Virus record (IMG/VR): IMGVR_UViG_3300027920_000641
DNA: 64,000 nucleotides
Strand: one strand, 5' to 3'
From: a virus
How positions within the stretch are numbered: position 1 is the stretch's first letter; each line of letters starts with the position of its first letter. Positions 33,891 to 62,002 of the stretch are shown piece after piece. The notes under the pieces are model-generated. The model worked only from the letters and a program-made list of their open reading frames with translations. It was not told the DNA's origin and searched no databases. The translations under genes and the position numbers were made by a program.

Positions 33891-33901
33891 AAGGAGGTTA
33901 T

Positions 33902-34102: not shown

Positions 34103-34114
34103 AGAAAGGACTGT

Positions 34115-34817: not shown

Positions 34818-34830
34818 AAAGGAGGGGACT

Positions 34831-35712: not shown

Positions 35713-35769
35713 TAAAAAGCCGTTTTTGAGCCTTACACGGGCTCGTCTCGAGTAAAAAAGTATGAAAAT

Positions 35770-40423: not shown

Positions 40424-40425
40424 TA

Positions 40426-41169
40426 ATGAAAATAAGTGTAGTAACACCAAGTATAAGAAAGGAAGGACTTTATGTCGTCAAAGAAGCTCTCAAAAGGCAA
40501 ACAAACCAGGACTTCGAATGGCTCATTGGGAGCTCGTTCGATCCAAAAATACCAGATGGGATCTGGGTTAGAGACGATTTTCTGGGTGGGTATTGGTCTC
40601 TTAACCGTATTTACAATCGGCTTTTTAGCAGGGTATCAGGTGAAATTGTGGTTTCCTGGCAAGATTGGATATACGCCGATAGAGAAGCCCTTGATAAATT
40701 CTTGTTCAATGTCTCCAGAGTATCAGCAGTGGTATCAGGAGTCGGTGATCAATATGAAAGAGTCGGACAGTTCGGCAAACCTGAAATAAAAATATGGTCT
40801 GATCCAAGAAAGACCGACAAATATGGCAGTTTCTATGAATGCAATCCGAGTGATGCCGAGTGGAATTTCTGTGCTTTCCCCACTTCATTTATCTATGATG
40901 TGGGGGGTTTTTGTGAAAAGTTAGATTGGACTGGGTTTGGAATGGATGGATATCAGGTTAATGAGAGATGGGATCTTTTGGGTTATAAATTTTATCTTGA
41001 CCAAGCTAATGAGTCTTATACTATTAGGCATGATAGAAGTGCCCATGGAGGAAAGGAAAACTGGAATCAAAATAATAATCTTTCAAATGGTCAATATGAA
41101 AAGGTTCGTCAGGAGTTTATTAATAAGGGAGAATGGCCAAGAATGAAATATTTAGGCATTAATAAATAG
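40426..41169 (+). CDS. family-2-like glycosyltransferase
   Basis: MKISVVTPSIRKEG N-terminus of GT-A type; 247 aa. Confidence 0.5.
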   Translation: MKISVVTPSIRKEGLYVVKEALKRQTNQDFEWLIGSSFDPKIPDGIWVRDDFLGGYWSLNRIYNRLFSRVSGEIVVSWQDWIYADREALDKFLFNVSRVSAVVSGVGDQYERVGQFGKPEIKIWSDPRKTDKYGSFYECNPSDAEWNFCAFPTSFIYDVGGFCEKLDWTGFGMDGYQVNERWDLLGYKFYLDQANESYTIRHDRSAHGGKENWNQNNNLSNGQYEKVRQEFINKGEWPRMKYLGINK

Positions 41170-41174
41170 TTGCT

Positions 41175-41909
41175 ATGTCATACAAAAATAAAGCAGATGC
41201 CTTGTTATATTATAAAAAATGGTATCAAAAAGTAAAACATCGTTATTCCAAGTTGTGTATTCATTGTCAAAATAGTTTTCAAACAAGATATAAACAACAA
41301 TCATGCTGTTCACTGGCCTGTGCTGGAGCACATAGAAAAAATACAGTTATTTGTTTACAATGTGGTAGAGCTTTTTATGCACCTCCTTCAAAGAAAAGAA
41401 GATTCTGTTCACAAAAGTGTTTTATGTCGTCTCCAGCTCAAAAAGAGGTAATGAGAATACGCATGCAACAGCGATGGGCAGATGGGGAATTTAAAGATTT
41501 TAAGTGGCCTGGACCCTCCGCCGAATACAGAGAGTGTTGTAGAGCGAGATTCAGAAAACTAACGGGAAATAGAAATCATATGTGGAAGGGCGGTATCTCA
41601 AAGGTAAAAAATCAAGTCAGAAAAATGCCAGAATATAAAAAGTGGAGAAATAGTATTTTTGAACGTGACAACTACACATGTTTACTATGTGGTGGGAGAA
41701 GCAAAAAGGGTTGTCATCAGGATATAAATGCAGATCATCACCCAATTGCTTTTGCTAAAATTATTGCAGAAAACAATATCGAGAATATACGGAATGCTTC
41801 TGTTTGTACGTTATTATGGGATATTAACAATGGGAGAACTCTTTGTCTCAATTGTCATAAAGATGTGACTTTTAAAAACCTGGCCAGTCTTGGACTTTCT
41901 AAAACGTAG
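41175..41909 (+). CDS. HNH endonuclease with multiple zinc ribbons
   Basis: CIHC..CCSLAC, CLQCG..FCSQKC, CLLCGG...HHPIAFAKII...LCLNCHKD. Confidence 0.75.
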   Translation: MSYKNKADALLYYKKWYQKVKHRYSKLCIHCQNSFQTRYKQQSCCSLACAGAHRKNTVICLQCGRAFYAPPSKKRRFCSQKCFMSSPAQKEVMRIRMQQRWADGEFKDFKWPGPSAEYRECCRARFRKLTGNRNHMWKGGISKVKNQVRKMPEYKKWRNSIFERDNYTCLLCGGRSKKGCHQDINADHHPIAFAKIIAENNIENIRNASVCTLLWDINNGRTLCLNCHKDVTFKNLASLGLSKT

Positions 41910-41924
41910 TTAGTGTGATATGAC

Positions 41925-42404
41925 ATGTGTATGACAGAAAAAGTGGTAGCGCCAGTCTCTGCACCAGTAGTTGCACCAGTTGCTGCACAATCTCCCACTG
42001 TTCAAATTACTGTTCAGAATCCAACCCAGACAGCTCCAGTAGAAACTCCTAAAGAAGTTCCACCGTTATCTGGACCAGATACGGATACTATTATTCCTAA
42101 AGAACCATACTACATGGACCCTATGTTTTATGAGGTGGCTAATTACTTTGGAATTAAGCAAGAAGAATATTCTGCCGCGAAACTTAAATTGTCAGATATA
42201 GTTGACTACATTATCCAGGAAAAGAAATCTAATAAAACTGAAGACATTATCATTGGCCTTAGAGAGCTAGAAGACTCAGTGCAACCCCCAGCTTGGGGAG
42301 AACGCAGGTATACCAACGTACATCGCTATGTTCGTTTAGCGAGTAAAAAGAATGCTATTGAGCAGGCTATGGGCGCGTTTAAAAAAGGAGGTTTCAGTGG
42401 GTAA
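41925..42404 (+). CDS. hypothetical protein with Pro/Val/Ala-rich N-terminus
   Basis: ORF track 159 aa. Confidence 0.5.
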   Translation: MCMTEKVVAPVSAPVVAPVAAQSPTVQITVQNPTQTAPVETPKEVPPLSGPDTDTIIPKEPYYMDPMFYEVANYFGIKQEEYSAAKLKLSDIVDYIIQEKKSNKTEDIIIGLRELEDSVQPPAWGERRYTNVHRYVRLASKKNAIEQAMGAFKKGGFSG

Positions 42405-42768
42405 TCTATCTGGCAGAATGCCAACCCAAGCATTGGACAAGGAACAATCGGACAGGGTAGAACGCCGAAGAAGAGTGGCCACATACGTTGACGGGAATGT
42501 AATTGCGTATGAGTCTGTGAATTTCACTGTCTCAGAAGACCAGTCTGTTTTGAATGTTATTACGGACTTGGGGCGTAAATGCCACACTGGTTATTTCATC
42601 AATGATGGACCAGGAGATATCAAGGTTGAGTTCAGCATCGATGGGACAAACTATGGTGGTCTTCACGTATTGCGTGGCGGAGATGCCATTTCCTTAGATG
42701 ATCTGAATATTAGTAAAATACGGCTAACTTACGTAGATGACTGTGAGTTTCGCTGTCTAGTGGGGTAA
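42397..42768 (+). CDS. hypothetical protein
   Basis: GTG start 5 nt after AAGGAGG; track ORF 42352..42768 trimmed. Confidence 0.45.
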   Translation: MGNLSGRMPTQALDKEQSDRVERRRRVATYVDGNVIAYESVNFTVSEDQSVLNVITDLGRKCHTGYFINDGPGDIKVEFSIDGTNYGGLHVLRGGDAISLDDLNISKIRLTYVDDCEFRCLVG

Positions 42769-43027: not shown

Positions 43028-43885
43028 GTGGCATTGTTAACAATCATAATTCCATCGAAAACTGAGCGTTTTTTAGAAAAGACGATTCGTGATGTTCTGC
43101 TCAACGCAACTGGTGATATTGAGATTTTACCTATTCTAGATGGTTACAGTGTCCCAAAAGAGGAGTTTGTTGATGACGCTCGAGTCAGGTATCTTTCGAT
43201 GCCTCCATCAAAACATACTCAAAAACGACAGGGTATTAATCTTGGAGTTGCAGAGGCAACTGGTGAGTATGTGATGTCTCTTGATGCGCACTGTTTGGTG
43301 GCCAGAGGTTTTGATGAACAATTAATTAAGGACCACCAACCAAACTGGGTGCAAATCCCTCGTAGACACAGGCTTGACGCAGAAAAATGGGACTTACAAC
43401 CACAGGGGGATAAAAGACCGCCTATTGATTATGAATATATTATGTTTCGTCCACTAATTTCAAAAGATCAAATGGGTTTGCACGGTTTCAAGTGGGAATC
43501 AAAGACCATTGAAAAAATGGATATACCCATCGATGACACAATCACTTTCCAGGGTTCCTGCTGGTTCATGACTAAAGACTGGTTTAATAAAATGGGTTTC
43601 ATGGATCTTGCCTACACGGGTTGGGGTCAAGAGGCAGAGGAAATCAGTTTTACTACCTGGAAGAATGGCGGTAGAGTAGTGACTAACAAGAATACTTACT
43701 ACGCTCACCTTCACAAGGGGGCTAAGTATGGGCGCATGTACTGGATGAGTCGAGATGAAAATCGTAAGAGCTATGCATATTCTTCCGATTTCTGGTTGAA
43801 TAAAAACAGGGACTTTTTTATTAGTTTAGTAGAAAAATTTATGCCCATGCCAGGGTGGCCAAAGGATTGGAGAAAGTTATTATGA
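43028..43885 (+). CDS. family-2 glycosyltransferase (DAH-motif type)
   Basis: LLTIIIPSKTERFL, ILPILDG, MSLDAHC, QGSCWFMTKDWF; paralogous to the N-terminal domain of 45930..47534. Confidence 0.65.
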   Translation: MALLTIIIPSKTERFLEKTIRDVLLNATGDIEILPILDGYSVPKEEFVDDARVRYLSMPPSKHTQKRQGINLGVAEATGEYVMSLDAHCLVARGFDEQLIKDHQPNWVQIPRRHRLDAEKWDLQPQGDKRPPIDYEYIMFRPLISKDQMGLHGFKWESKTIEKMDIPIDDTITFQGSCWFMTKDWFNKMGFMDLAYTGWGQEAEEISFTTWKNGGRVVTNKNTYYAHLHKGAKYGRMYWMSRDENRKSYAYSSDFWLNKNRDFFISLVEKFMPMPGWPKDWRKLL

Positions 43886-44490
43886 ATGCACTAGATTATT
43901 TTGTTGACAAATATAAAATAGATTTGAGTCAGCCTTCTCCTATTTTTGTTCCAATCGGTAGGTTCAAGGATATCCCAAAACTTTTTGCAGAGCTTGGATA
44001 TACTGAAGGCGCCGAGATTGGGGTATATCGAGGTAGTTATAGTGAAACTCTACTTAAAAGAATCCCTAATTTGCACCTTATTGGAGTCGATTTGTGGGAG
44101 ACTTATCGGGGTTATAAAGATTTCTCTTCAACAGATATAGTTGATGCCGAATCAGAAGCCAGAGAACGTACCAAAAAATACAATTGTCAGATGGTTAAGG
44201 GGTGGAGTGACGAAGTTGCAAAAACAATTCCCGACGAAAGTTTGGACTTTGTTTTTATTGATGGCAATCATAACTACGAATGGTGTGTATGGGATCTTGC
44301 TAACTGGTCGAGAAAAGTTAAAAAAGGCGGTATTATTTATGGGCATGATTACGATGACTATTCTAGGTCGAAACGGTGGGCAGAGATGCAAGTTATTCCA
44401 GCGGTAAACGGATGGATGGAGGCGAAAAAAATTAGTCCCTGGTTTGTAATTACAAACAATAAGAATCGTTGCTGGATGTATGTTAAATAG
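43855..44490 (+). CDS. class I SAM-dependent O-methyltransferase (Methyltransf_24/TylF-like)
   Basis: GAEIGVYRGSYS, LIGVDLWE, DFVFIDGNHNYEWCVWDL, GGIIYGHDY. Confidence 0.65.
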   Translation: MAKGLEKVIMNALDYFVDKYKIDLSQPSPIFVPIGRFKDIPKLFAELGYTEGAEIGVYRGSYSETLLKRIPNLHLIGVDLWETYRGYKDFSSTDIVDAESEARERTKKYNCQMVKGWSDEVAKTIPDESLDFVFIDGNHNYEWCVWDLANWSRKVKKGGIIYGHDYDDYSRSKRWAEMQVIPAVNGWMEAKKISPWFVITNNKNRCWMYVK

Positions 44491-45166
44491 GGTTTCAATC
44501 ATTATCCCAGTTTATCAAAGTCACGAAATCGTAAGAAGGCAGTTGCTTTATTTGGATCGACTAAGTCTTCCGATCGAAGTAATTATAGTTGATGACAATT
44601 CAACTCCGCCTATTGACGGGGCAACATTACGGATGAACAACGATTTAGCATGGACACAGGGACTTGCCCGTAATGCTGGAGCAGAGTATGCATCTGGGAA
44701 TTATTTGTTTATGACAGATATAGACCATATTCTTTCGAAAGAAGCCATTGAGGATGCCCTAGTTTTCACGGGAAATAAAATGATATTTAGAAGACAAATA
44801 GCCATACTCGATGAAAACGGAGAAATTAGACAAGACAGTACCACCCTGGAGGATTGGGGTTACGAGAATAAAAACCTAGGCGCCTCTGTTCATGGAAATA
44901 CGTTTGTAATTAAGAAGACGGTTTTTGATGAACTTGGTGGCTATGACGAGCATGCTTGTACTAGAGGGTATCACCCTGTTTCTAGGAGTGGCGATGATTG
45001 TTTTTTTAACTCTAAATGGAATAAGAAATATAGGGGGGAAGCTCCAGCCGTTGGAAGAGATATTTATATGTTTCCCATCGGTCGATTTCATAAAAATGGC
45101 GATCTAAATCCGAAGGGCCTATTCCATAATTTAAGTCAAAGCAAGCAAGAAAGGATGTACAAATGA
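44480..45166 (+). CDS. family-2 glycosyltransferase
   Basis: VSIIIPVYQS, EVIIVDDNS, GLARNAGAEYASGNYLFMTDIDHIL (DxD). Confidence 0.8.
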   Translation: MLNRVSIIIPVYQSHEIVRRQLLYLDRLSLPIEVIIVDDNSTPPIDGATLRMNNDLAWTQGLARNAGAEYASGNYLFMTDIDHILSKEAIEDALVFTGNKMIFRRQIAILDENGEIRQDSTTLEDWGYENKNLGASVHGNTFVIKKTVFDELGGYDEHACTRGYHPVSRSGDDCFFNSKWNKKYRGEAPAVGRDIYMFPIGRFHKNGDLNPKGLFHNLSQSKQERMYK

Positions 45167-45948
45167 ACAAAGCGATAATTGGCTATGGCTGGGTTGGAAA
45201 GGCGATGAGCGTCCTTTTCCCAGATGCTTTTATTTATGACCCATATTATTTTGACGATTCTGGTTCTGTTTTTTTGAGTGATCAAAATGTCGTTAATGAA
45301 TGTGATGTTGCTTTTATATGTGTTCCGACTCCAAGTATTGACGGAGGGAAACTGGATGTCTCTATTGTGGAAGAAATTGTTGGCTGGTGCAAATGCCCAC
45401 TGATTGTTATCCGCTCTACTGTCAACCCAGGAACCTGTGATTATCTTGCAAAAAAGTATAATAAGCGCTTAGTGATGCAACCAGAGTATTTAGGAGAAAC
45501 CATTAACCACCCGATGACCGACCAAAAAACTCGTCCATTTCTAATCATCGGTGGTGAACCCGATGACCGAAGAATGCTGATTGATCTTTACACATCAGCT
45601 TATAACGCTAACATCAACATCCGACAAGTAACTGCTTATGAAGCAGAAGTTATCAAACTCTCTGAGAACAGAGCTATAGCCTTCAAAATTGCTGAGTGTC
45701 AGGAGTTATATGATGTCTGTATGGCCTCAGGCGTTGATTACTATGTTATAAGAGAGGCGGTTTATTCTGACGACCCGCGCTTTAACCTATGGTGGACATT
45801 CATTTATCCAGAAAGAAGGGGGTTCAATTCCAAGTGTTTGCCAAAGGATGTATACGCTTGGGCAGCTTGGGCAGAATCAGTCGGTTATAAACCAGCGGTA
45901 ACAAGAGCATTGCTTGAAAGGAACAAACAATGGACCTCTCAATTTTAA
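45163..45948 (+). CDS. UDP-glucose/GDP-mannose dehydrogenase-family protein (short, WbpA-like)
   Basis: IIGYGWVGKA NAD motif, CDVAFICVPTPS, catalytic-Cys motif FNSKCLPKDV; 261 aa, so the C-terminal UDP-binding domain is absent. Confidence 0.6.
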   Translation: MNKAIIGYGWVGKAMSVLFPDAFIYDPYYFDDSGSVFLSDQNVVNECDVAFICVPTPSIDGGKLDVSIVEEIVGWCKCPLIVIRSTVNPGTCDYLAKKYNKRLVMQPEYLGETINHPMTDQKTRPFLIIGGEPDDRRMLIDLYTSAYNANINIRQVTAYEAEVIKLSENRAIAFKIAECQELYDVCMASGVDYYVIREAVYSDDPRFNLWWTFIYPERRGFNSKCLPKDVYAWAAWAESVGYKPAVTRALLERNKQWTSQF

Positions 45949-47534
45949 TTCCAGCAAGATCAGAAATGTTCTTAGCAAGAACAATACAGGATTTATTAGA
46001 ACACATCGAGGGTAATACCGAGATACTGGTCGGCCTCGATGGAGCTTGGGCTGACCCTCCTATTACCGACAACCCGAAAGTTACTATAGTCCATGTCTCA
46101 GAGGCTATTGGTCAAAGAGCCATGACTAATCAGTTGTGTCGCCTTTCTAAGGCAAAGTATGTGATGAAGGTAGATGCTCATTGTGCGTTTGATCAGGGGT
46201 TCGATGTCAAGATGATAGCGGATATGCAAGATAACTGGACAATGGTTCCAATTATGCGCAATCTTCACGCGTTTAACTGGGTTTGTTCTGAAGGGCACAC
46301 TCGTTACCAGGGACCCTCTGGTGCCTGTGAAAAATGTGGAAAAGAAACAACTAGAGATATAGTATGGATTCCTAAAACCAATCCTAGTAGTACCTCATAT
46401 TGTTTTGATCCAGAGCCGCATTTTCAATATTTCGGTGAATTCAAAAATAGACCAGAGGGAAAAGGGGATTTAACTGAAACAATGAGCCTCCAGGGTTCAT
46501 GTTTTATGATGACTAGAGATAAGTATTGGGAGTTGAATATCAGCGACGAGGAGTTTGGTTCATGGGGCAGTCAAGGAATAGAAGTAGCCTGTAAAACATG
46601 GCTGTCTGGCGGTCGCGTCGTAGTTAATCATAAAACATGGTACGCTCACCTGTTCAGAACACAAGGTGGTGATTTTTCGTTTCCTTATCCCCAGTCTGGG
46701 AAAGCTGTCAGTAATGCCAAGAAGAAAGCAAAAGATCTCTTTTTTAATAATAAATGGGATAAACAGATTCATCCCCTATCATGGTTAGTAGAAAAATTCT
46801 GGCCAGTACCAGGTTGGACTGAAAATGATCTCAAATCTCTTAAGAAAGAGCCAACCAAAGGGGTTCTTTATTACTCAGACAACGCCCTCAATATGCGCTT
46901 AGCCAGTAGAGTACGTCAACAAATTCAGAAATCAGGACTACCAGTCACCTCGGTCACTCTCAAACCGACTCCTTTTGGTAAGAATATAGTTATTAAAGAA
47001 CCAAGGGGTTACTTGACTATGTTTAAGCAAATTCTTGCTGGTCTTGAAGCAATGACTGAAAACATTGTCTATTTCTGCGAACATGATGTCCTATACCATC
47101 CAGATCATTTTAAGTTTACACCAGAAGATCAGTATAAGTTTTATTACAATGGCAACTACTGGTTTGTCAGATTGAAGGATGGCTTTGCTATTCACTATGA
47201 TGTCAGTCCTCTTTCTGGCCTTGTTGGTTATCGAGAGCAACTTATTGTCCATTTCAAAGAACGCGTTAGTATGATAGAAAAATTAGGAGACGAGTATAAA
47301 CCGCTTCATATGGGTTTTGAACCAATGACCCATAAGCGAATCAAGTGGAATAACTGGTTTGAGTATGAGATATTTATGCCAGAGAATCCGAATATAGACT
47401 TGGCGCACGAAGGCAATTCTACTTGGAAGCGGTGGAAACAAAAAGACTTTATTAAAAAACCAGCATTTTGGGAAGAAGGCACAATAGATACTATCCCAGG
47501 ATGGGAAAGCATAAAAGAAATTTTGAAACAATAA
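45930..47534 (+). CDS. family-2 glycosyltransferase (DAH-motif type) with large C-terminal extension
   Basis: LSILIPARSEMFL, ILVGLDG, MKVDAHCAF, QGSCFMMTRDKYW; 534 aa. Confidence 0.6.
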   Translation: MDLSILIPARSEMFLARTIQDLLEHIEGNTEILVGLDGAWADPPITDNPKVTIVHVSEAIGQRAMTNQLCRLSKAKYVMKVDAHCAFDQGFDVKMIADMQDNWTMVPIMRNLHAFNWVCSEGHTRYQGPSGACEKCGKETTRDIVWIPKTNPSSTSYCFDPEPHFQYFGEFKNRPEGKGDLTETMSLQGSCFMMTRDKYWELNISDEEFGSWGSQGIEVACKTWLSGGRVVVNHKTWYAHLFRTQGGDFSFPYPQSGKAVSNAKKKAKDLFFNNKWDKQIHPLSWLVEKFWPVPGWTENDLKSLKKEPTKGVLYYSDNALNMRLASRVRQQIQKSGLPVTSVTLKPTPFGKNIVIKEPRGYLTMFKQILAGLEAMTENIVYFCEHDVLYHPDHFKFTPEDQYKFYYNGNYWFVRLKDGFAIHYDVSPLSGLVGYREQLIVHFKERVSMIEKLGDEYKPLHMGFEPMTHKRIKWNNWFEYEIFMPENPNIDLAHEGNSTWKRWKQKDFIKKPAFWEEGTIDTIPGWESIKEILKQ

Positions 47535-47535
47535 C

Positions 47536-47922
47536 ATGTATAATGCAGAAATAAAAGCATCAATTTTAAGTTTTTGTATACTCTTAATTATAAGTCCATT
47601 AGCAGTACATAATCAAGTGAATGATTATCGTATAGAAAATAAGTTACAACCGTTAGTATTTAATAAGAGTTTGTGTAAAGTAGCAGAAGTACGAGCGAAT
47701 CAGATACAAACAGATTGGTCACACAAAAGTTTTTTTAAAGAAGTAAAAAAAATTAAATATGCACAAGCTGGTGAAAATTTAGCAAAAGATTTTAATAATG
47801 AAGAAGATTTAGTAAATGCATGGATAAACTCAAAAGCGCATAGACAAAATTTATTAAGACCATATACACGGCATTGTATAGCTTGTGTTAATAATCATTG
47901 TGTACAAATACTTATAAGGTAG
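47536..47922 (+). CDS. secreted CAP/SCP/PR-1-like (YkwD-type) protein
   Basis: Signal peptide, then GENLAKDFNNEEDLVNAWINSKAHRQNLLRPYTRHC matching the SCP-like GEN...W..S.gHr.N.L pattern; strongly AT-rich codon usage. Confidence 0.55.
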   Translation: MYNAEIKASILSFCILLIISPLAVHNQVNDYRIENKLQPLVFNKSLCKVAEVRANQIQTDWSHKSFFKEVKKIKYAQAGENLAKDFNNEEDLVNAWINSKAHRQNLLRPYTRHCIACVNNHCVQILIR

Positions 47923-47942
47923 CAAATTAATAAAATTATTTT

Positions 47943-48617
47943 ATGAAAAAAACAATTTTCACTTTAAATGTTAATAGTTACTCACCAGAAATAACAACAC
48001 TTACATATCCTCTTATTCATAAGTATGCTGAAAAAATAGGTGCTGATTTTTATGTTATTTCAAAACGTAAATATCCAGATATGCCTGTAACATATGAAAA
48101 ATTGCAAATTTATGATTTAGCAAGAGAAATGGGCAATGATTGGAATATTTATCTTGATTCAGATACATTAGTACATCCAGATACAGTTGATTTTACATCT
48201 TTAATTTCTAAAGATACAGTTATGCACAATGGTGCAGACATGGCAAGCATTCGCTGGAGATATGATAATGTATTTTTGCGAGATGGTAGAGATATTGGAT
48301 CATGTAACTGGATGGCAATTGCTTCTGATTGGTGTTTAGATCTTTGGAGTCCACTTGATATTCCGCTTCAAGAAGCGTTAAATAATATTTTTCCTACAGC
48401 AAATGAATTGCAAACAAATATTACTAAAGAACATTTAATCGATGACTATACTTTGTCAAGAAATATCGCGCGATATGGATTAAAATTTATTACAGCAAAG
48501 GATGTAATGAAACAAAAGGGTATTGAGGCTGCTAATTTTTTCTGGCATCAATACACATTACCAACAGATGAAAAGGTGGTGGAAATTAGAAAAATAATTA
48601 AAGCGTGGGGGATATAA
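47943..48617 (+). CDS. putative GT-A-fold glycosyltransferase-like protein
   Basis: YLDSDTLV DxD-like motif; AT-rich like the preceding gene. Confidence 0.35.
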   Translation: MKKTIFTLNVNSYSPEITTLTYPLIHKYAEKIGADFYVISKRKYPDMPVTYEKLQIYDLAREMGNDWNIYLDSDTLVHPDTVDFTSLISKDTVMHNGADMASIRWRYDNVFLRDGRDIGSCNWMAIASDWCLDLWSPLDIPLQEALNNIFPTANELQTNITKEHLIDDYTLSRNIARYGLKFITAKDVMKQKGIEAANFFWHQYTLPTDEKVVEIRKIIKAWGI

Positions 48618-48618
48618 A

Positions 48619-49533
48619 ATGGCCGCAAATTCAATCTCATTTAATAATAATAATACTTGGACAGCACCTAATAATGATATTGTAATGGTTGAGTGTTGGG
48701 GCGCAGGCGGTGGTGGAGGTTCAACAACATCTGCATCTATAGCTTCTGGTGGTGGAGGTGGTGGAGCGTATGCTAGAGCCAATGTGCAAGTGGTAGCAGG
48801 TAGAACATACAGTATACAAGCTCCTCCTGGTGGTGCTAATGGTGCTGCCAATGCCAACGGTGTAAGTGGTGTATATTCACAATTTGCATGGAATAACACA
48901 AATAACTGGACAACTTATGTCAGAGCAGCTGGTGGATTATTTGGTAGAGCTACTACTACTAGAGGTGCTGGTGGAACAGTCGCTAATAGTTTTGGTGATA
49001 TTGCTTTTGCTGGAGGAGTCGGAGCTAATGGTGTAAATGCTACAGGTATAGGAGGCGGTGGTGGTGCAGCAGCAGGAAATGCAAATGCTGGTGCGGCTGC
49101 TTCAGGTGCAACTGGTGGTACTGGTGCGAATGGTGGAGGAAATGGAGCGACTGGTGGAGCAAGTGGAGCTAATGCTACGGACAACGCTGAAGCACCAGGT
49201 GGAGGTGGAGCTGGAGCTGGAAATAATACTGGAACTGGTAGATGGGGTAGTCCTGGCAAAAATGGCACTGTAAAAATCACATTTAATGACAACGCTACAA
49301 TAAGTGGAAAAGTTACAACGGTCGGAGCAAACCAAGCTGATGCAAGAGTAATGGTTATAGCATCAACTGATAATAATGCAGCAAATAGTTTTCTAGTAGG
49401 AGTAGCCACAGCAAATGCCGAAGGAAACTGGACTATGACAGTACCATCGGCAAAAGTAATATCAGCCGTAGCCCAACACAACAATGCCACAGCACAATAT
49501 ACAAGCAAGGCTGCCCCGTTTGTAGCAAGTTAA
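48619..49533 (+). CDS. glycine-rich domain protein (minor-tail/fibre-like)
   Basis: WTAPNNDIVMVECWGAGGGGGS...GGGGGGAYARANV resembles the conserved Gly-rich domain of phage minor tail proteins; the 197-aa minus-strand ORF opposite is a shadow. Confidence 0.5.
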   Translation: MAANSISFNNNNTWTAPNNDIVMVECWGAGGGGGSTTSASIASGGGGGGAYARANVQVVAGRTYSIQAPPGGANGAANANGVSGVYSQFAWNNTNNWTTYVRAAGGLFGRATTTRGAGGTVANSFGDIAFAGGVGANGVNATGIGGGGGAAAGNANAGAAASGATGGTGANGGGNGATGGASGANATDNAEAPGGGGAGAGNNTGTGRWGSPGKNGTVKITFNDNATISGKVTTVGANQADARVMVIASTDNNAANSFLVGVATANAEGNWTMTVPSAKVISAVAQHNNATAQYTSKAAPFVAS

Positions 49534-49534
49534 T

Positions 49535-52500
49535 ATGGCATATACCGTACCAGCTACTAATGCAATGAATTTTGCGTTAGAGGTACATACTCCACCAGCT
49601 ACCAATGCAATGAATTTTGAGATTGCCGATGGGACAGCTCCAACGGTTGCTTTGAACACACCAGCGGATAGCTCAGGCATAAATGATACAACTCCAACAT
49701 TAAATTTTACTGGAACAGATGAAGAAGAAGATGATGTTGAATATCAAGTACAAATATCGCCAGCAAAAACAACGCTTGCATTAGAACTCAGAGAAAACTC
49801 AAACGATTTTCATAATAACTTTGACGGAACTGATACAAATATTTCCTATGGAATGACTACCACAAAATTATCAGCAATATTTAATGGAACATCGTCAAAA
49901 ATACTAATTACCAATACAATAGCAAGTCTGAGCGTTTTTTCTATTGGTTTGTATGTTTACACAACGGACAATGTGTCTGAGAGAAAGTATTTTGTTAGAG
50001 ATGCGACTAGTGGTACAGATTGGGCATTTTATGTGGGGCAGTATGACGGAAAATATTATTGGGGTATGCAAACAGATACTTGGCATACATACTATACATT
50101 AACTACTGTAGGACTAAATGAGTGGAAGTCAATCATATTCACTTATGATGGTACAACTGCAAAACTTTATGTAAATACAAGTTTGATTGATACACAAACG
50201 CCTGGCAGTATTGTCAGCCAAACTAGCAAACCATTCAAGCTAGGCTATTTAGATACGCAACAATTTCATTCTGGTTCTTTATTTAATTTTTTTGTATTTG
50301 ATTATGTTATATCAGAGGATGAAAGAAATGCTCTGTTTGCTTGTGGTGGGGTTGGATTAAATTATCCCTTTTTTGTTGAACCACCTGGGGCAGAAACATA
50401 TAGTTTCCCCTATGCTCTCAGTTATCAATCAACATTAGATAGTGGTTTTACATCTGGACATCCATTCGGCTCTGGTGATGCGATAGATTTTACTATACCG
50501 ATTACCGATGAGCTTGATGTTGGCACTGAGTATTTCTGGCAAGTAAGAGCTAAAGATCCGCTTGGGAGCACTATATATGGAGATTGGAGTGCAATGAGGT
50601 CATTTGAGGTATTATCTTCATCTAGTCAAAGTCCAAGTCAAAGTCCAAGCCTTAGTCCATCAAGTTCTGTTTCACCAAGTGAAGCGTCAACATGGTACAA
50701 CGCAAGCTGGTTATATAGAGTAAAAGTTACTGTTTTGGCCACAGAAGTTGATGTAGATTGCACAAATTTTCCAGTTTATTGTGACTTATCTGATTTACCT
50801 GCTGATTTTCATACTAATGTAAAAGCAAATGGCGCAGATATTAGAATAACAAAAGCAGATGGCACAACAGAAATTCCAAGAGAAGTAGTTTTCTATGATC
50901 AGGCTACTGATACTGGAGAACTTCATTTTAAAGGTGATATAGATTCTGATACAGATACTGATTTTTATGTTTATTATGGAAATTCTGGTGCCACTGAGCC
51001 AGCCATAGATTCTACTTATGGTGCAGAAAATGTCTGGTCATCAGATTATGAGGTTGTTGCGCATATGCAGCAAGATCCTAGTGGAGGTGCACCTCAGATA
51101 TTAGATAGTACTACTAATGATGTAGATGGCACAACAAATGGTTCGATGGCATCAGGTGATTTAGTTGCTGGGCAGTTGGCAGGTAATGCTTTAGATTTAG
51201 ATAGTGATGATTGGATAAATTTTGGTGATAATGGTGATTATAGAACTTATGATAAAACAGTGTCGATATGGGTAAGTACGAGTGATACAGATGCTTATAT
51301 AGTGGCAAAATCAAAGTATGGTGCAGAATCAGGTAGATGGGCAATAGGTACTCCAACAACTCCAACATCTTTTGTTAATGTAGGTGGCACAGATTCTGTG
51401 ATGTCATCAGCTTCGGCAATAAATAGCAGTTGGCACTTATTGACAATGGTTGTTGATAGAAACAGTTATCACAAAATGTATGTTGATGGTCAACAAGTTG
51501 CATCAAATACAGGAACAAATATTACTAATTATTCTGCTTCAGATTTGAATACAGCAAATATACTTCTTGTAGGTGGTTATAATGATGCCGCAGGAACAAG
51601 TATACACGCTTCTGCTTTTAAATATGTTGGAAAAGTAGATGAACTAAGAGTAAAGAAAGCAGCAGATTCAGCAGAATGGATCTCGACTGAATATAACAAT
51701 CAATCAAGCCCAAGTACTTTTTATGATGTAGGAATACAAGAAGAAAATACAGCTGCTTCTTCATCAGTATCTCCTAGTCAAAGTCCAAGCTTAAGTCCTA
51801 GTTCAAGTATAAGTCCTTCGCAAAGTCCTAGCCAAAGTCCAAGTCTTAGTCCTAGTTCAAGTGTTTCTCCATCATTTCCTCCAGATGTAAATACGTATTA
51901 TTTTGATGAAAGTGATGAAGGAGTAACAGATCCAAATAATGTTTGGACGAATGATGCAAATGCTTTTGACAGTGATGCGACTCCTTCAACGTATGCTAGT
52001 ACATCAACAGTTGGTTCTGTCTCTAGTAATTATCTAAAGGCTGAAGGAACTTCTGCTCCAAGTTCAGCTACAACAACTATTACTCAGGTTAGAGCTAGAA
52101 TGTATGGCAGGAGTGGTTGGGGTAGTTATCTTACTCTTACCGCACCGACAGGAGGATGGGATTGGGGACATGTCGCTGCATTAGAAATTAAATGTTATTC
52201 TACAAGTTCAGAAACTGGCAATGTTAGTGCTACTGTTTATACTGATGGTTTAGGAGAATCACTTGGAGAAATTTCGAGCAATAGTGCTTTGCCTGGATCT
52301 AGAGTTTATAAAATTGAAATCGAAGTTACTTCTGATCCTGTTGATGAATCGTCATCTATTAGTCCAAGTGTAAGTCCAAGTTTAAGTCCTAGCCAAAGTC
52401 CTTCACTTAGTCCATCATCTAGTGTAAGTCCTAGCCAAAGTCCTTCACTTAGTCCATCATCTAGTGTAAGTCCAAGTCAAAGTCCTAGTCAAAGTCCAAG

Positions 52501-54157
52501 CTTAAGTCCTAGCTCAAGTGTAAGCCCTAGTCAGAGTCCTAGTCAAAGTCCTAGTCTTAGTCCATCATCTAGTGTAAGTCCTAGTCAAAGTCCTAGCCAA
52601 AGTCCTAGTCTTAGTCCTAGCTCAAGTGTAAGTCCTAGTCAAAGTCCTAGTCAAAGCCCTAGTCTTAGTCCATCATCTAGTGTAAGTCCTAGTCAAAGTC
52701 CTAGTCAAAGTCCTTCACTTAGTCCTAGCTCAAGCATAAGTCCTAGTCAAAGTCCTAGTCAAAGCCCTAGCCTTAGTCCATCATCTAGTGCAAGCCCTAG
52801 TCAAAGCCCTAGTCAAAGTCCAAGCCTTAGTCCTAGCTCAAGCGTAAGTCCTAGCCAAAGTCCTAGTCAAAGCCCAAGTCTTAGTCCTAGTTCAAGTGTA
52901 AGTCCTTCACAAAGTCCTAGTCAAAGTCCAAGTCTTAGTCCTAGTTCAAGCGCAAGTCCTTCACAAAGCCCTAGTCAAAGTCCAAGTTTAAGTCCTAGTT
53001 CAAGTGTAAGTCCTTCACAAAGTCCTAGTCAAAGTCCTTCACTTAGTCCATCATCTAGTGTAAGTCCTAGTCAAAGTCCTAGTCAAAGCCCTAGTCTTAG
53101 TCCATCATCTAGTGTAAGTCCTAGTCAAAGTCCTAGCCAAAGCCCTAGCCGCAGTCCTAGTAGCTCTGTCAGTCCATCCGAAATATCGTCTGAGTCTTCA
53201 TCGATATCACCATCTAGTTCACTTTCTCCAAGTGTTTCTCCATCACTTAGTGCCAGTCAAAGTCCTTCACTTAGTCCAAGCAGTTCAGTTAGTTCATCTC
53301 TCAGTCCTAGTTCCAGCAAATCACCTAGTGAAAGTCTTTCCCTCAGTCCTTCAGCAAGTCAGAGCCCAAGTAAATCTCCAAGTCAATCCCCCTCCCTTAG
53401 TCCAAGTAGTTCTGCTAGTCCCAGTCAATCTCCGAGTGCAAGTCCTTCTATTTCTCCAAGTTCAAGTAAGTCACCTAGCCAGTCACCTTCGGTTAGTCCA
53501 AGTCTTTCTCCCTCTAGTTCAAAAAGTCCAAGTCAAAGCCCTTCAGAGTCTCCTAGTTTAAGTCCCTCAAGTAGTGAAAGCCCTTCTCAATCTCCATCAG
53601 GGTCACCATCTTTTTCACCAAGTGCCTCGATCAGTCCATCAGTCTCTCCTTCCCAATCTCCTAGTTTAAGTCCATCTACTTCTCAGTCACCAAGTCAATC
53701 ACCCTCCATCTCTCCTAGCCTATCACCAAGCAGTTCAAAAAGTCCAAGTCAAAGCCCCAGTCAAAGTCCCTCACTTAGTCCTTCCTCAAGTGCAAGTCCT
53801 AGTCAAAGTCCTTCCTCAAGTCAATCTCCAAGCATAAGCCCATCTGTATCCCCAAGTAGCAGTGTTTCTCCATCCACAAGTCCAAGTTCGTCTCAATCAC
53901 CCAGTCAGTCTCCATCTGTTTCAGAAAGTGAATCTCCATCTATCTCGCCATCTCCTAGCCTTAGTCCTAGCTCTAGTGTAAGTCCAAGTCAGAGCCCTAG
54001 TTTGTCTCCATCAAGTAGTGAATCTGCATCTGTATCTCCTTCGCCATCCCCACCTTTTTCTTCTGGCTATTCAAAACTGGCATATTTTGATAATGAAGTT
54101 GGTTATTATATTCGTATGATTGGTCATATCCCTTACTACAAAAAAGTTATTGAATAA
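49535..54157 (+). CDS. giant fibre/adhesin-like protein: LamG/ConA-like domains + DUF2341-like domain + about 15 tandem 18-aa Ser-Pro repeats
   Basis: WHLLTMVVDRNSYHKMYVDGQQVA and NEWKSIIFTYDGTTAKLYVN match the LamG pattern; WYNASWLYRVKVTV..NFPVY...DIRIT..DGTTEIP...FYVYYGN matches the DUF2341 pattern; (SPSQSPSQSPSLSPSSSV)n. Confidence 0.75.
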   Translation: MAYTVPATNAMNFALEVHTPPATNAMNFEIADGTAPTVALNTPADSSGINDTTPTLNFTGTDEEEDDVEYQVQISPAKTTLALELRENSNDFHNNFDGTDTNISYGMTTTKLSAIFNGTSSKILITNTIASLSVFSIGLYVYTTDNVSERKYFVRDATSGTDWAFYVGQYDGKYYWGMQTDTWHTYYTLTTVGLNEWKSIIFTYDGTTAKLYVNTSLIDTQTPGSIVSQTSKPFKLGYLDTQQFHSGSLFNFFVFDYVISEDERNALFACGGVGLNYPFFVEPPGAETYSFPYALSYQSTLDSGFTSGHPFGSGDAIDFTIPITDELDVGTEYFWQVRAKDPLGSTIYGDWSAMRSFEVLSSSSQSPSQSPSLSPSSSVSPSEASTWYNASWLYRVKVTVLATEVDVDCTNFPVYCDLSDLPADFHTNVKANGADIRITKADGTTEIPREVVFYDQATDTGELHFKGDIDSDTDTDFYVYYGNSGATEPAIDSTYGAENVWSSDYEVVAHMQQDPSGGAPQILDSTTNDVDGTTNGSMASGDLVAGQLAGNALDLDSDDWINFGDNGDYRTYDKTVSIWVSTSDTDAYIVAKSKYGAESGRWAIGTPTTPTSFVNVGGTDSVMSSASAINSSWHLLTMVVDRNSYHKMYVDGQQVASNTGTNITNYSASDLNTANILLVGGYNDAAGTSIHASAFKYVGKVDELRVKKAADSAEWISTEYNNQSSPSTFYDVGIQEENTAASSSVSPSQSPSLSPSSSISPSQSPSQSPSLSPSSSVSPSFPPDVNTYYFDESDEGVTDPNNVWTNDANAFDSDATPSTYASTSTVGSVSSNYLKAEGTSAPSSATTTITQVRARMYGRSGWGSYLTLTAPTGGWDWGHVAALEIKCYSTSSETGNVSATVYTDGLGESLGEISSNSALPGSRVYKIEIEVTSDPVDESSSISPSVSPSLSPSQSPSLSPSSSVSPSQSPSLSPSSSVSPSQSPSQSPSLSPSSSVSPSQSPSQSPSLSPSSSVSPSQSPSQSPSLSPSSSVSPSQSPSQSPSLSPSSSVSPSQSPSQSPSLSPSSSISPSQSPSQSPSLSPSSSASPSQSPSQSPSLSPSSSVSPSQSPSQSPSLSPSSSVSPSQSPSQSPSLSPSSSASPSQSPSQSPSLSPSSSVSPSQSPSQSPSLSPSSSVSPSQSPSQSPSLSPSSSVSPSQSPSQSPSRSPSSSVSPSEISSESSSISPSSSLSPSVSPSLSASQSPSLSPSSSVSSSLSPSSSKSPSESLSLSPSASQSPSKSPSQSPSLSPSSSASPSQSPSASPSISPSSSKSPSQSPSVSPSLSPSSSKSPSQSPSESPSLSPSSSESPSQSPSGSPSFSPSASISPSVSPSQSPSLSPSTSQSPSQSPSISPSLSPSSSKSPSQSPSQSPSLSPSSSASPSQSPSSSQSPSISPSVSPSSSVSPSTSPSSSQSPSQSPSVSESESPSISPSPSLSPSSSVSPSQSPSLSPSSSESASVSPSPSPPFSSGYSKLAYFDNEVGYYIRMIGHIPYYKKVIE
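52351..53170 (+). repeat. tandem 54-nt coding repeat (about 15 copies) encoding SPSQSPSQSPSLSPSSSV
   Basis: Near-identical units with synonymous variation; continues as degenerate Ser-Pro repeats to about 54060. Confidence 0.85.
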
Positions 54158-54240
54158 TGACTGATTATCTAGTTGACTAAATTATTTTAGTTAGATATAG
54201 TGACAAGAAAATAGTTAGATAGCAAAGCAATTGCGTTTAA

Positions 54241-54268
54241 CCACCTAATAAAAGAGGTGGTTTTTTTT
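54241..54268 (+). terminator. rho-independent terminator
   Basis: ccacct-aataaaag-aggtgg followed by T8. Confidence 0.75.
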
Positions 54269-54298
54269 ATTACTAAGCGCTTATTACAAGGAAATTCT

Positions 54299-54982
54299 AT
54301 GTCAAGACTAACAGTTGAATCCATCATGCAAGCTATTGCCGCTACTGTTAATCAGGAGTCTGCGGCTCCTAGTTCTGGATCTAGTGAGTGGAGTTTGTGG
54401 CTTCAATATATTAATCGATCTTATAGCGAGTGGGTTCAAGCAAACGACTGGGAATCGTTAAGAAAAACTTATTTTCCTAGCATTACAGGGTCGTCAATGG
54501 CTTCGGTCCCGCTTCCTCTTGATTTCAGGAAACTAGCTGCTAGTCCGATTTTGTATGGAGGTACCACTAGTGGAGAAGAAGTCCCAGAGGTTCTGCTAGA
54601 ACAAAGACGACAGTTTAATGAGACAGACAAGTTTTTTTCTACTATTGGAAATCACTCAGACGGCTTTACTCTTTTATTCCATCCAGCCACTCTTGCTTCT
54701 GGAGCCTCATTGGAAGTGCAGTACTACTCAACTCCTACGTCGCTTGCCTCTCCATTGGAAGTACCGATTACTAGTGATCCTCAGTACCTGATTGATAGGT
54801 CAATAGCATATATTCTGGAAGCTCGCTCAGATCCTAGATTTCAACTAGAGGAGAATAAGGCAAGAGATAGGCTGATGGCTATGATAGAAAATGTGAATGC
54901 GGCTAAATATAATTCTTATGCTGGAAGCGCACCTGTTTTGACTACTTTAAGAAAATCTGGTTTCCGTTTAGGAAGAAACTAG
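54299..54982 (+). CDS. hypothetical structural protein
   Basis: Track ORF 54257..54982 trimmed to the first ATG after the terminator and palindrome. Confidence 0.5.
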   Translation: MSRLTVESIMQAIAATVNQESAAPSSGSSEWSLWLQYINRSYSEWVQANDWESLRKTYFPSITGSSMASVPLPLDFRKLAASPILYGGTTSGEEVPEVLLEQRRQFNETDKFFSTIGNHSDGFTLLFHPATLASGASLEVQYYSTPTSLASPLEVPITSDPQYLIDRSIAYILEARSDPRFQLEENKARDRLMAMIENVNAAKYNSYAGSAPVLTTLRKSGFRLGRN

Positions 54983-56947: not shown

Positions 56948-56964
56948 TTTAAAAGGATAAAAAT

Positions 56965-60403: not shown

Positions 60404-62002
60404 ATGTCCTACGCATATAAAGCCACAATAACAATTGACCACACAAAAGTCTCTGGTTCTGGTGATTTGACTGATTTTCCAGTCTTGATTTCTGGTACAT
60501 ATGATGGAACTGGCAGCGAGCCAGATTTAAGGGTGGGAACTAGCGGTGGCAATGTAACTTCTACGAGTGGGTACGATATTATTTTTACCTCTGACTCTGA
60601 TGGAAATACTCAACTTGACCACGAAATTGAAACCTATGTTTCAACTACTGGTGCGGTTTGTTTTTGGGTTAGATTACCGACACTTGACGGTGATGCAAGC
60701 ACAACTATCTATATGTGGTATGGCGATTCTGGTGTTACAACTTCTCAAGAAGATGTCGCTGGTGTATGGGATGCTGACTACGTTGGTGTATATCACTTAA
60801 AAGAAACCCCAGACCATACAGCGGATGAAGTAAAAGACTCTAGTGGTAATAATCATGGTACTGGAGCGGGAACCCTAACTTCAGTTACTGGCGCATTTGG
60901 TGGTAAAGCCATCAACTTTGGAGGAGCTGGTTATGTAGACTTAGGTGCTAGATCAGACCATAATTTTAGTGGCAACTTTACTGTATCGGCATGGGCATAT
61001 AACGCCAGCGGGGGAATAAGTAACTGTAACGTAGTTGCTCATGATCAAAGTACGGGCAGGCAGTGGGATATACATGTATCAGGGGATACAACTTTTTGGG
61101 CTGATGTTGCTAAGTCTGGCAGTTATAAAGTGGCAGAGGTTTCAAGTGGTTTTGCGAATGGGGCTTGGAAACATCTGGTGGGTAGATATAACGGCAGTAA
61201 TATTGAGGCATTTACTAATGGTTCAAAAACTACTGGAGAAGCCGTAACAGGCGCACCAGATAGTCACCCGACAACTCACTCATCAATCGGAACTTATTAC
61301 ACTTTTGGCTCTTATGTTTTTCCTGGATATATTGATGAAGTTAGGTTATCGAAGATTGCTCGGAGTGATGACTATCTGATTACTGAATACAATAATGGTA
61401 GCTCACCATCTACATTCTACACAATGGGAGATGAGACAGAGGCTGGCGGTCCATCATCTAGTCAAAGTCCAAGTGTAAGCCCCAGTCAGAGCCCCAGTCA
61501 AAGCCCCTCACTTAGTCCTAGCTCAAGCCAGAGTCCCAGTCAAAGCCCTTCACAGAGTCCAAGTCTTAGTCCTTCCTCAAGCATAAGTCCTAGCCAAAGT
61601 CCTAGTCAAAGCCCTAGCCGCAGTCCTAGTAGCTCTGTCAGTCCATCCGAAATATCGTCTGAGTCTTCATCGATATCACCATCTAGTTCACTTTCTCCAA
61701 GTGTTTCTCCATCACTTAGTGCCAGTCAAAGTCCTTCGCTTAGTCCAAGCTCAAGCCAGAGTCCCAGTCAGAGCCCTAGTCAATCCCCTTCACTTAGTCC
61801 TTCATCAAGTGTAAGCCCTAGCCAGAGCCCCAGTCAAAGTCCCTCACTTAGTCCTAGCCCAAGTCAAAGTCCTAGCCTTAGTCCTTCATCAAGTGTAAGC
61901 CCTAGCCAAAGCCCTAGCCAAAGCCCTAGTAGCTCAATTAGTCCGAGCGTTAGTCCATCACCATCTCCAGAAGATGATGAAAGTTACTGCTTTCTACTTT
62001 GA
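60404..62002 (+). CDS. DUF2341/LamG-domain protein with C-terminal Ser-Pro repeats
   Basis: N-terminus YKATITIDHTKVSG..DLTDFPVLIS...DIIFTSDSDGNTQLDHEIETYV...IYMWYGD matches DUF2341; NCNVVAHD...WKHLVGRYNGSNIEAFTNG matches LamG; C-terminal (SPSQSPSLSPSSS)n. Confidence 0.7.
   Translation: MSYAYKATITIDHTKVSGSGDLTDFPVLISGTYDGTGSEPDLRVGTSGGNVTSTSGYDIIFTSDSDGNTQLDHEIETYVSTTGAVCFWVRLPTLDGDASTTIYMWYGDSGVTTSQEDVAGVWDADYVGVYHLKETPDHTADEVKDSSGNNHGTGAGTLTSVTGAFGGKAINFGGAGYVDLGARSDHNFSGNFTVSAWAYNASGGISNCNVVAHDQSTGRQWDIHVSGDTTFWADVAKSGSYKVAEVSSGFANGAWKHLVGRYNGSNIEAFTNGSKTTGEAVTGAPDSHPTTHSSIGTYYTFGSYVFPGYIDEVRLSKIARSDDYLITEYNNGSSPSTFYTMGDETEAGGPSSSQSPSVSPSQSPSQSPSLSPSSSQSPSQSPSQSPSLSPSSSISPSQSPSQSPSRSPSSSVSPSEISSESSSISPSSSLSPSVSPSLSASQSPSLSPSSSQSPSQSPSQSPSLSPSSSVSPSQSPSQSPSLSPSPSQSPSLSPSSSVSPSQSPSQSPSSSISPSVSPSPSPEDDESYCFLL

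Follow-up and report, generated by a model that had tools for sequence, protein, structure and literature searches.

We analysed a 64,000-nt stretch of viral DNA (IMG/VR virus record IMGVR_UViG_3300027920_000641; the window hereafter), which carries on its plus strand an open reading frame (ORF) at 49535..54157 for a modular, fibre-like protein of 1540 aa with long Ser/Pro tracts and, further upstream at 45930..47534 (+), a gene for a 534-aa two-domain glycosyltransferase (GT), the N-terminal GT-A domain of which resembles the polypeptide N-acetylgalactosaminyltransferases (ppGalNAc-Ts) of family GT27. Genes of this GT family and tracts of the form (Ser-X)n were linked almost obligatorily across viral loci, and the cassette to which the GT gene belongs was found to be mobile between phage backbones. 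The explanation that we consider probable is that the window comes from the late region of an uncultured, SU10-like podovirus and that the 1540-aa protein is a virion appendage whose stalk would be O-glycosylated by the phage cassette.

Linkage of a GT27-like enzyme to (Ser-X)n tracts

The main tract of the 1540-aa protein (aa 939-1509, about 570 aa; 52349..54061, +), which is the proposed O-glycosylation acceptor and extended stalk, followed a strict (Ser-X)n grammar, with Ser at each odd residue and Pro-Pro spacings that were even only. Together with two Ser/Pro linkers at aa 361-384 (50615..50686, +) and aa 741-781 (51755..51877, +), the tracts totalled about 635-655 aa, or 42% of the protein; the original prediction, which was made from the sequence alone, had put the Ser/Pro part at about 900 aa and had counted 15 tandem 18-mers in it. 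Both figures were too high. The main tract contained 13 canonical 18-mers of the form SPSQSPSQSPS[L/R]SPSSS[V/I/A] (aa 979-1212; 52469..53170, +; an example of an SPSx-tract peptide unit is SPSQSPSQSPSLSPSSSV), preceded by one 14-mer and one 26-mer variant and followed by about 300 aa of degenerate units. Tandem Repeats Finder (TRF) reported a 54-nt period in 14.7 copies (score 879) and a 108-nt super-period (score 999) at 52365-53160, and the repeat is thus far beyond chance. The units hardly differ as peptides. The 54-nt DNA units had also been described as near-identical, whereas their mean pairwise identity was 82% (range, 63-100%), and 470 of the 514 differing codon comparisons among the 13 units (91%) were synonymous. 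These data indicated purifying selection on the peptide. At the DNA level, one exact repeat of 60 nt or more persisted within the tract, with its copies 432 nt apart.

The window encodes a second protein of this kind in its tail module, a 532-aa DUF2341-LamG protein (60404..62002, +; DUF2341, 37.3 bits) with its own SPSx tract of about 170 aa. The idiosyncratic segment SRSPSSSVSPSEISSESSSISPSSSLSPSVSPSLSASQ was found in both proteins, and the gene has a 296-nt stretch in common with the main tract of the 1540-aa ORF at 87.5% identity, which indicates past duplication or gene conversion between the two genes.

S-rich tracts, which came in SPSx, Ser-Thr and poly-Ser flavours, were present in 8 of the 57 viral locus clusters retrieved by a DUF2341-LamG profile, in 3 of 119 protein homologues of the non-repeat part, and in none of 148 representatives with the N-terminal module or of 72 cellular loci, mostly from Patescibacteria. 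The presence of any upstream GT was associated with that of any S-rich tract (4/6 versus 5/41, p = 0.009; 0.02-0.04 with conservative corrections), and Pfam searches on 204 ORFs of the 'GT-negative' viral loci found the GT1 and GT2 families to be essentially absent. A family-specific association test was far sharper. Among 58 viral DUF2341-LamG loci, orthologues of the 534-aa GT, of a GT2 enzyme encoded at 43028 and of a Methyltransf_24 protein from the same cassette occurred only in the SPSx loci L001, L009 and L030, in each of them just upstream of the tract protein. Scanning of viral contigs with the GT itself yielded 36 non-redundant loci with an orthologue (mutual identity, <90%). An SPSx-tract ORF lay downstream of the GT in 22 of the 27 loci having at least 2 kb of downstream sequence, at a median gap of 345 nt, and anywhere in the flanks in 26 of these 27, compared with 5 of 53 control clusters (Fisher p = 5e-15). 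Since just 1 of the 22 downstream tract proteins possessed DUF2341-LamG, the GT follows the tract and not the lectin modules. Our locally built hidden Markov models for GTs are narrow; they detected none in about 940 kb of cellular flanks, which we do not take as evidence of absence there.

Tracts linked to the GT (40 ORFs, 15.8 thousand aa) contained 54% Ser, 17.5% Pro and hardly any Thr, showed Pro-Pro spacings of 4, 6 and 8 only, and placed Pro at position -1, often also +3, of alternate serines; loci without the GT27-like enzyme carried Ser-Thr or poly-Ser tracts. L175 (GT identity, 80%) seemed at first to be an exception, but a 689-aa tract ORF that had escaped gene calling was found to begin at the GT stop codon. 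Public gene calls show small antisense ORFs in place of this Ser/Pro ORF (L175 11601-13670; also in L176 and L177), and annotations of metagenomic phages probably miss low-complexity Ser-X genes systematically. Other Ser-rich flavours, namely (STS)n of up to about 1000 aa in total and poly-Ser 9-mers, were observed at equivalent linker positions in L021 (8318-15106), L011 (11396-12541), L002 (1933-5721) and L003 (10001-13225), with different GT sets in L011 and L021, and there may be several parallel tract-enzyme systems.

PDB sequence searches with the 534-aa GT returned essentially only polypeptide GalNAc-transferases (E = 1e-4 with the single sequence and 1.9e-7 with a profile), and ppGalNAc-Ts were its top two structural matches as well. 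In the alignment to GT27, DAHC of the phage enzyme, the DxH metal motif, falls on DAHC, WGsqGiE on WGGENLE, and aHlFR on GHVFR. The enzyme accordingly has the GT-A fold and the DxH metal-binding motif of GT27, its Gal/GalNAc-T motif (W212-G-S-Q-G-I-E218) and its third metal-ligand His (H240-M-F-R243). W212, Q215, G216, H240, F242 and R243 were invariant among the GT homologues (n = 30), and G213, S214 and E218 were present in at least 90% of them; with its more than 120 clusters at 50-80% identity, the family is both large and conserved. Pfam recognized PF00535 only. A second alpha/beta GT-A-like domain was modelled for the C-terminal half of the protein; in L001 and L009, this domain is encoded by an ORF of its own. 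As neither a ricin-type (R-type) lectin domain nor the membrane anchor of a type-II topology was detected in the 534 aa (no transmembrane [TM] segment), we call the enzyme GT27-like and do not assign it to the family itself. GalNAc transfer to Ser/Thr of a polypeptide is its putative activity, the evidence for a polypeptide acceptor being the genetic linkage to (Ser-X)n tracts. The GT-A domain contains as an insertion an invariant Cys/His cluster (C119, H123, C133 and C136), which may be a zinc ribbon and is not found in the aligned region of the eukaryotic GalNAc-Ts.

Domain architecture of the 1540-aa protein

The ORF at 49535..54157 runs from ATG to stop as originally predicted, and its start codon lies one base past the stop of an upstream Gly-rich gene. 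Neither an N-terminal signal peptide nor a TM segment was detected in its product. Pfam matched Laminin_G_3 in two stretches (E = 1e-22, 81 bits versus a cut-off of 27.6), of which the one in the first LamG domain covers aa 118-263, and Laminin_G_2 weakly at aa 619-707, placing the protein by profile in the LamG/Concanavalin-A (ConA)-like superfamily (PF13385, PF02210). DUF2341 (PF10102) scored below threshold at aa 432-488 (20.9 bits versus a cut-off of 23.4), and precomputed PF10102 assignments were present on most of the 119 database homologues aligning over aa 385-740. This DUF2341 plus second LamG block (50687..51754, +) is the sole part of the protein in common with those homologues and was well conserved in a 17-sequence alignment, in agreement with the two LamG domains and the putative DUF2341 of the original prediction. 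The second LamG profile was related to the LamG domain of the S-layer protein 4qvs (E = 4e-17) and to toxin Hc lectin-like domains. The ligands of LamG domains are diverse, and we regard carbohydrate or ligand binding by the LamG heads as putative.

Local and exhaustive searches indicated that aa 33-80 (49631..49774, +) and aa 295-359 (50417..50611, +) are the two halves of a single Fn3/Ig-like domain; the C-terminal half includes the segment YFWQVRAKDP, which had rightly been recognized as Fn3-like, and the N-terminal half matches tandem copies in relatives. The first LamG/ConA-like domain, identified by Pfam (aa ~85-293; 49787..50413, +), is inserted between them. In relatives, the split domain occurs in tandem copies with various inserts between the halves. 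A beta-sandwich domain of unassigned function (aa 782-938; 51878..52348, +) is in relatives an insert in the same Fn3-like host domain. PHROGs matched no family on the non-repeat part of the protein.

The protein ends in an aromatic/basic tail of 31 aa (...FSSGYSKLAYFDNEVGYYIRMIGHIPYYKKVIE; 54062..54154, +), which is kept in the Ser/Pro protein of L175, with the common pattern YSKL..F...GYY..M.GH.P.Y.KV; similar tails were found in L163 and L169. We propose this tail as an anchor or oligomerization element. Since the tail is common to the window and L175 proteins and their N-terminal heads are unrelated, the tail would be the constant end and the lectin-type modules the variable, distal end, a polarity in which the tail would serve anchoring or oligomerization. 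The C-termini of tract proteins elsewhere comprised few recurrent elements, namely W-[ND]-G-x-x-W hairpin-like repeats, xNKY/WTKEDK repeats and a conserved domain of about 130 aa, YLQIYN...WE..DSD...CR[IV]YQ (seen in L139, L149, L002 and P0002; L141, L143, L152 and L165; and L147, L167, L173, L174 and L009), and these may be anchors or oligomerization modules. A promoter-like site (54173-54201) and, about 80 nt past the stop codon, a terminator-like hairpin with a T-run (54239..54272, +) follow the gene, both of them consensus matches only.

Genomic setting, mobility and host

The SU10-type major capsid protein (MCP) gene (29417..30247, +; SU10_MCP, 3e-57) and the SU10-type head-tail adaptor gene (54257..54982, +; SU10_adaptor, 28.6 bits versus a cut-off of 27; true start probably the ATG at 54299) form the upstream and downstream edges of a head-accessory slot. 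The MCP match spans profile positions 24-288 of 292 and the protein has no C-terminal extension. With the portal, which was identified by a PHROGs match, the window has the MCP, adaptor and portal of an SU10-like (Kuravirus-type) structural module. Between MCP and adaptor lie a 17-kb sugar-enzyme island, a Gly_rich_2 protein and the 1540-aa ORF. The same slot holds a DUF2341-LamG homologue in L005, another SU10-like contig, and in the siphovirus-type L001 and L006 such homologues follow the capsid gene. Judged by gene position, the 1540-aa protein would most likely be a fibre of the head or neck; its placement on the virion, and on the head as against the tail, is suggested by gene order and family context.

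The glycosylation island (31416-48617) lies directly upstream of the fibre region, in agreement with the original prediction. Its accessory part (31416..42768, +) encodes a TPR + GT-B protein, a GT2, an HNH endonuclease, a GT1-like protein, a methyltransferase, a DegT-type aminotransferase, a GFO/IDH/MocA oxidoreductase and several unknowns. A conserved five-gene cassette follows (43028-47534, +), in which four genes (43028..45948), for a GT2 (43028-43885), the Methyltransf_24 protein (43855-44490), another GT2 (44480-45166) and a nucleotide-sugar dehydrogenase-like protein (45163-45948), precede the 534-aa GT. Between the genes for GT and fibre lie two small ORFs (47536..48617, +), which encode a 128-aa unknown protein and a 224-aa protein with a weak GT21-like match, whose orthologue adjoins a LamG protein in L017. 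They are followed by the 304-aa glycine-rich protein (Pfam Gly_rich_2; 48619..49533, +), a module that in other phages is fused to a LamG or Ser/Pro protein (P0043, P0054, P0119; L030).

None of the island ORFs contained a TM-like segment, all island enzymes thus being soluble, and family scans of the larger ORFs turned up no flippase, polymerase or lipid-carrier enzyme. Island enzymes devoid of membrane segments fit a cytoplasmic protein acceptor. The TPR + GT-B protein (824 aa; 31416..33890, +), whose GT-B domain is of the GT1/GT4 type, has a layout that recalls protein-directed O-glycosyltransferases. We considered it as an OGT-like enzyme for the tract and set it aside, as it had no PDB sequence relative and its sole orthologue among the loci examined was in the tract-less L057. 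A WbpA/B/E-like 2,3-diamino-uronic-acid pathway for the dehydrogenase, oxidoreductase and aminotransferase was also considered and is kept as a lead only, since the ORFs were short and their NCBIfam scores far under the cut-off.

Comparison of backbones revealed that the window, with its SU10 capsid and adaptor, and L001, a siphovirus with tape measure, Dit and Mu gp36, have only cassette and tract protein in common. The window and L175 share only the collinear five-gene cassette (63-80% aa identity), the tract type and the C-tail. These results indicated that the cassette is mobile between phage backbones, and the sequences place it in both podoviruses and siphoviruses. The L175 tract was fully degenerate and identical in three metagenome assemblies. 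Closer relatives were sought in several ways: megablast of 45000-62000 against 50,697 deposited phages gave no match, metagenome contigs scanned with a protein pattern from aa 1-360 contained no relatives, and an exact 26-nt repeat pattern matched no viral contig and, in metagenomes, only an unrelated microsatellite. Thus, the collections scanned contained no close relative or length variant of the 1540-aa gene.

The closest cellular homologues of DUF2341-LamG came overwhelmingly from metagenome-assembled genomes of Patescibacteria, and the named sources of GT homologues were Patescibacteria, too. The host is therefore probably a bacterium of this group (also known as the candidate phyla radiation, CPR), which we take as a hint and not as an assignment. 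Two cellular relatives, P0092 and P0095, carry signal peptides, unlike the phage fibre.

Several other features of the window were recorded. Homing-endonuclease-type genes were found at 27949-28464, 28695-29201, 36360-37025, 14015-15016 (-) and 18293-18766 (one LAGLIDADG, three HNH, and one Endonuclease VII + NUMOD3); one of them is within the island and two are just upstream of the capsid gene, and HNH orthologues occupy equivalent places in L006, L009, L011 and L030. A tandem DNA repeat at about 671-1033, which reads (QVSTS)n in the plus frame, belongs to a minus-strand pentapeptide-repeat protein (626-1150, -; Pfam Pentapeptide, 2.6e-24). The window also encodes an RtcB-like RNA ligase (17043-18260, +; PHROG, 8e-75) and an SPFH/Band-7 protein (3784-4614, -; 1.7e-29), and no tRNA gene was detected within it. 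At 26001-28000, the GC content peaks locally (0.47 versus about 0.40), with a strong AT skew over the ORF 26920-27786 (288 aa); this ORF had no match in Pfam or PHROG and, by its position between portal and capsid, may encode a scaffold protein.

Proposed glycosylated stalk, competing explanations and known systems

In the mechanism that we propose, the lectin-type heads (the split Fn3-like domain with its LamG insert, the DUF2341-LamG block and the small beta-sandwich) would be held off the particle by the 570-residue (Ser-X)n stalk, with the short conserved C-tail ending the protein. O-glycosylation of the stalk serines would take place in the cytoplasm of the host, either ahead of particle assembly or in the course of it. 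The soluble ppGalNAc-transferase-like GT-A enzyme (45930-47534) would be the key enzyme, starting the glycan on the (Ser-X)n tract, and its second GT-A-like domain, the two further GT2s and the methyltransferase may extend or decorate this glycan from unusual donor sugars supplied by the nucleotide-sugar enzymes of the island. The predicted outcome is a mucin-like stalk that would be stiff, extended, hydrated and protease-resistant. The original suggestion that the tract is an O-glycosylation acceptor served by the island has gained strong comparative support, from the co-occurrence of GT and SPSx tract in the set of 36 viral contigs and from the solubility of the enzymes, and we consider it probable.

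A number of points weigh against this interpretation. Glycosylation itself, the identity of the sugars and the association with the virion are all inferred from genes. The likeness to GT27 is restricted to the catalytic core, at about 16% identity and with no ricin-type lectin domain, and the fold reveals neither donor nor acceptor specificity. The ORFs of the sugar pathway are short, and their scores are below the NCBIfam cut-offs. The evidence for head over tail is gene order, and the PHROGs labels on the neighbours of the fibre gene are generic 'tail' terms. The co-occurrence statistics count loci as independent, and cassette and tract could be co-inherited as one block with no enzyme-substrate relation. 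Moreover, the GT-bearing DUF2341-LamG loci L006, L033 and L057 have no S-rich tract, which indicates that phage GT islands are not always in need of tracts, and the poly-Ser loci L002 and L003 showed no GT in the flanks at hand.

Some of these points would also suit tracts that are unmodified spacers, flexible or polyproline II-like in the manner of the poly-Ser/PT linkers of carbohydrate-active enzymes, with the GT cassette acting on the capsid, another virion protein, DNA or a small molecule. GT islands adjoin LamG proteins in the three tract-less loci, relatives have Ser-Thr or poly-Ser at equivalent linker positions in the absence of a GT27-like enzyme, and mycobacteriophages, as reported by Freeman et al. 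2023 in the summary given in PMC12619734, glycosylate capsid and tail-tube C-termini and not repeat tracts. We nevertheless consider this reading unlikely, given the near one-to-one co-occurrence and adjacency of GT and SPSx tract across diverse backbones, the strong purifying selection on the exact peptide repeat, an SU10-type MCP that offers no C-terminal extension, and a GT whose closest structural relatives are protein-Ser/Thr O-glycosyltransferases acting on Pro-rich mucin repeats. The 54-nt units could instead form a contingency locus, in which slippage or unequal recombination varies the fibre length whatever the modification state; variation in fibre length by slippage or recombination had been envisaged in the original prediction. 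The 13 tandem units, the exact repeat with copies 432 nt apart and the stretch in common with the second Ser/Pro gene, a sign of past exchange or duplication, agree with this proposal. It is quite unlikely in our judgement: units that are only about 82% identical, mostly through synonymous differences, provide fewer substrates for slippage, the related L175 tract is fully degenerate and did not differ among three assemblies, and no length variant of the gene was present in the collections searched.

The genes might also be auxiliary metabolic genes (AMGs) for remodelling of the host surface, the ConA/LamG protein and sugar genes decorating the host envelope, for example in adhesion to partner cells or a block to superinfection, and not building the virion. 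Metagenomic studies have read ConA-like lectin and O-antigen nucleotide-sugar genes of Patescibacteria phages in this way (PMC12911398), and DUF2341-LamG homologues encoded by CPR cells are surface proteins (PMC11809585); the cellular relatives P0092 and P0095 bear the signal peptides noted above. The phage protein, however, possesses neither signal peptide nor anchor, no membrane protein is predicted in the island, and none of its larger ORFs gave a flippase, polymerase or lipid-carrier GT in family scans. The genes reside within a late structural operon, in the capsid-adaptor interval, and in several unrelated backbones; the GT is tied to the (Ser-X)n tract rather than to a lectin domain, and a second tract-bearing LamG protein is encoded among tail genes. 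We therefore regard surface remodelling as very unlikely.

The O-glycosylated virion stalk that we favour can be compared with several known systems. It resembles eukaryotic mucin-type O-glycosylation (GT27) in its enzyme, which has a GT-A core with DxH, Gal/GalNAc-T (WGGE-like) and HxFR motifs, and in its proposed acceptor, a long tandem Ser/Pro repeat with Pro at -1 (often +3) of every second Ser. It differs in that the phage GT is soluble and cytoplasmic, in contrast to the Golgi type-II membrane protein of eukaryotes, carries a second GT-A-like domain in its C-terminal half in place of a ricin-type lectin domain, has the Cys/His insertion and retains only about 16% identity, and in that the phage tracts are essentially devoid of Thr.

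Gram-positive serine-rich-repeat (SRR) adhesins (Fap1, GspB and SraP) and staphylococcal Ser-Asp-repeat (SDR) proteins likewise use a long (Ser-X)n stalk for ligand-binding domains, and the window shares with these systems a long Ser-X repeat with a dedicated GT nearby. The phage system has no LPXTG anchor, signal peptide or accessory Sec, and its linked GT is not a GtfA/B- or Sdg-type GT-B enzyme, which makes it an analogue and not a member. The GtfA/B and SdgA/B enzymes have the GT-B fold, whereas the initiating GT of the phage is GT-A (GT27-like). Further, X in the phage tract is mainly Pro, Val, Leu, Ile or Gln and not Asp, Ala or Thr, and the proposed carrier is the phage particle and not the cell wall. 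In SRR adhesins, the repeat is modified by dedicated cytoplasmic GTs encoded beside the substrate gene (PMC2952246), and in SDR proteins the soluble GTs SdgA and SdgB, encoded by adjacent genes, modify the Ser-Asp repeat in the cytoplasm, guarding it against proteolysis (PMC3794999).

Among phages, GTs encoded with the structural genes of mycobacteriophages modify virion proteins and change particle recognition (Freeman et al. 2023, as summarized in PMC12619734). According to that summary, the glycans there are on capsid and tail-tube C-termini, whereas dedicated repeat stalks of 200-1300 aa in accessory fibre proteins are proposed here; the GT family is another, the sugar-biosynthesis island is far larger, and the hosts are probably Patescibacteria. 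The corresponding slot of phage SU10, from capsid to adaptor, is occupied by the Ig-like gp10, a putative head-decoration or head-fibre-like protein, which itself was not observed on SU10 capsids (PMC9509320). The 1540-aa protein resembles the SU10/Kuravirus gp10 and phi29 gp8.5-type head fibres in its MCP-adaptor slot and, with its Ig/Fn3-like modules, gp10 in particular; it differs from gp10 in being about 10 times larger and in having LamG and DUF2341 modules and a Ser-X stalk, and the resemblance to gp10 is one of position and module type, no sequence similarity having been shown.

Mycobacteriophage virion glycosylation, Gram-positive Ser-X repeat glycoproteins with dedicated GTs, and eukaryotic GT27 enzymes with their mucins are each already known separately; the literature that we searched contained no description of a phage cassette pairing a ppGalNAc-T-like enzyme with (Ser-X)n stalks. 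The GT at 45930-47534 and SPSx peptides constitute a concrete enzyme-substrate candidate pair, and their linkage provides a rule for finding further pairs. If the proposal is true, a soluble O-glycosyltransferase from a bacterial system for a simple Ser-X repeat would be useful in glyco-engineering. How the ppGalNAc-T-like phage core is related to the eukaryotic mucin-initiating enzymes is a question that these data raise. Glycosylation of phage virions, which experimentally has so far been known mainly from mycobacteriophages, would be extended to mucin-like stalks, a GT27-like enzyme class and Patescibacteria hosts, and a structural reading may be called for in lectin and nucleotide-sugar genes of CPR phages that are listed as host-adhesion AMGs. 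In its widest form, to which we give somewhat less than an even chance, the conclusion would be that widespread uncultured phages, probably infecting Patescibacteria, carry a portable, self-contained 'mucin factory', made up of a cytoplasmic ppGalNAc-T-like enzyme, helper GTs, a methyltransferase and sugar-nucleotide enzymes, that densely O-glycosylates their own (Ser-X)n fibre stalks, a first prokaryotic-virus counterpart of mucin-type O-glycosylation, in which the 'AMGs' of CPR phages would really be virion-building genes.

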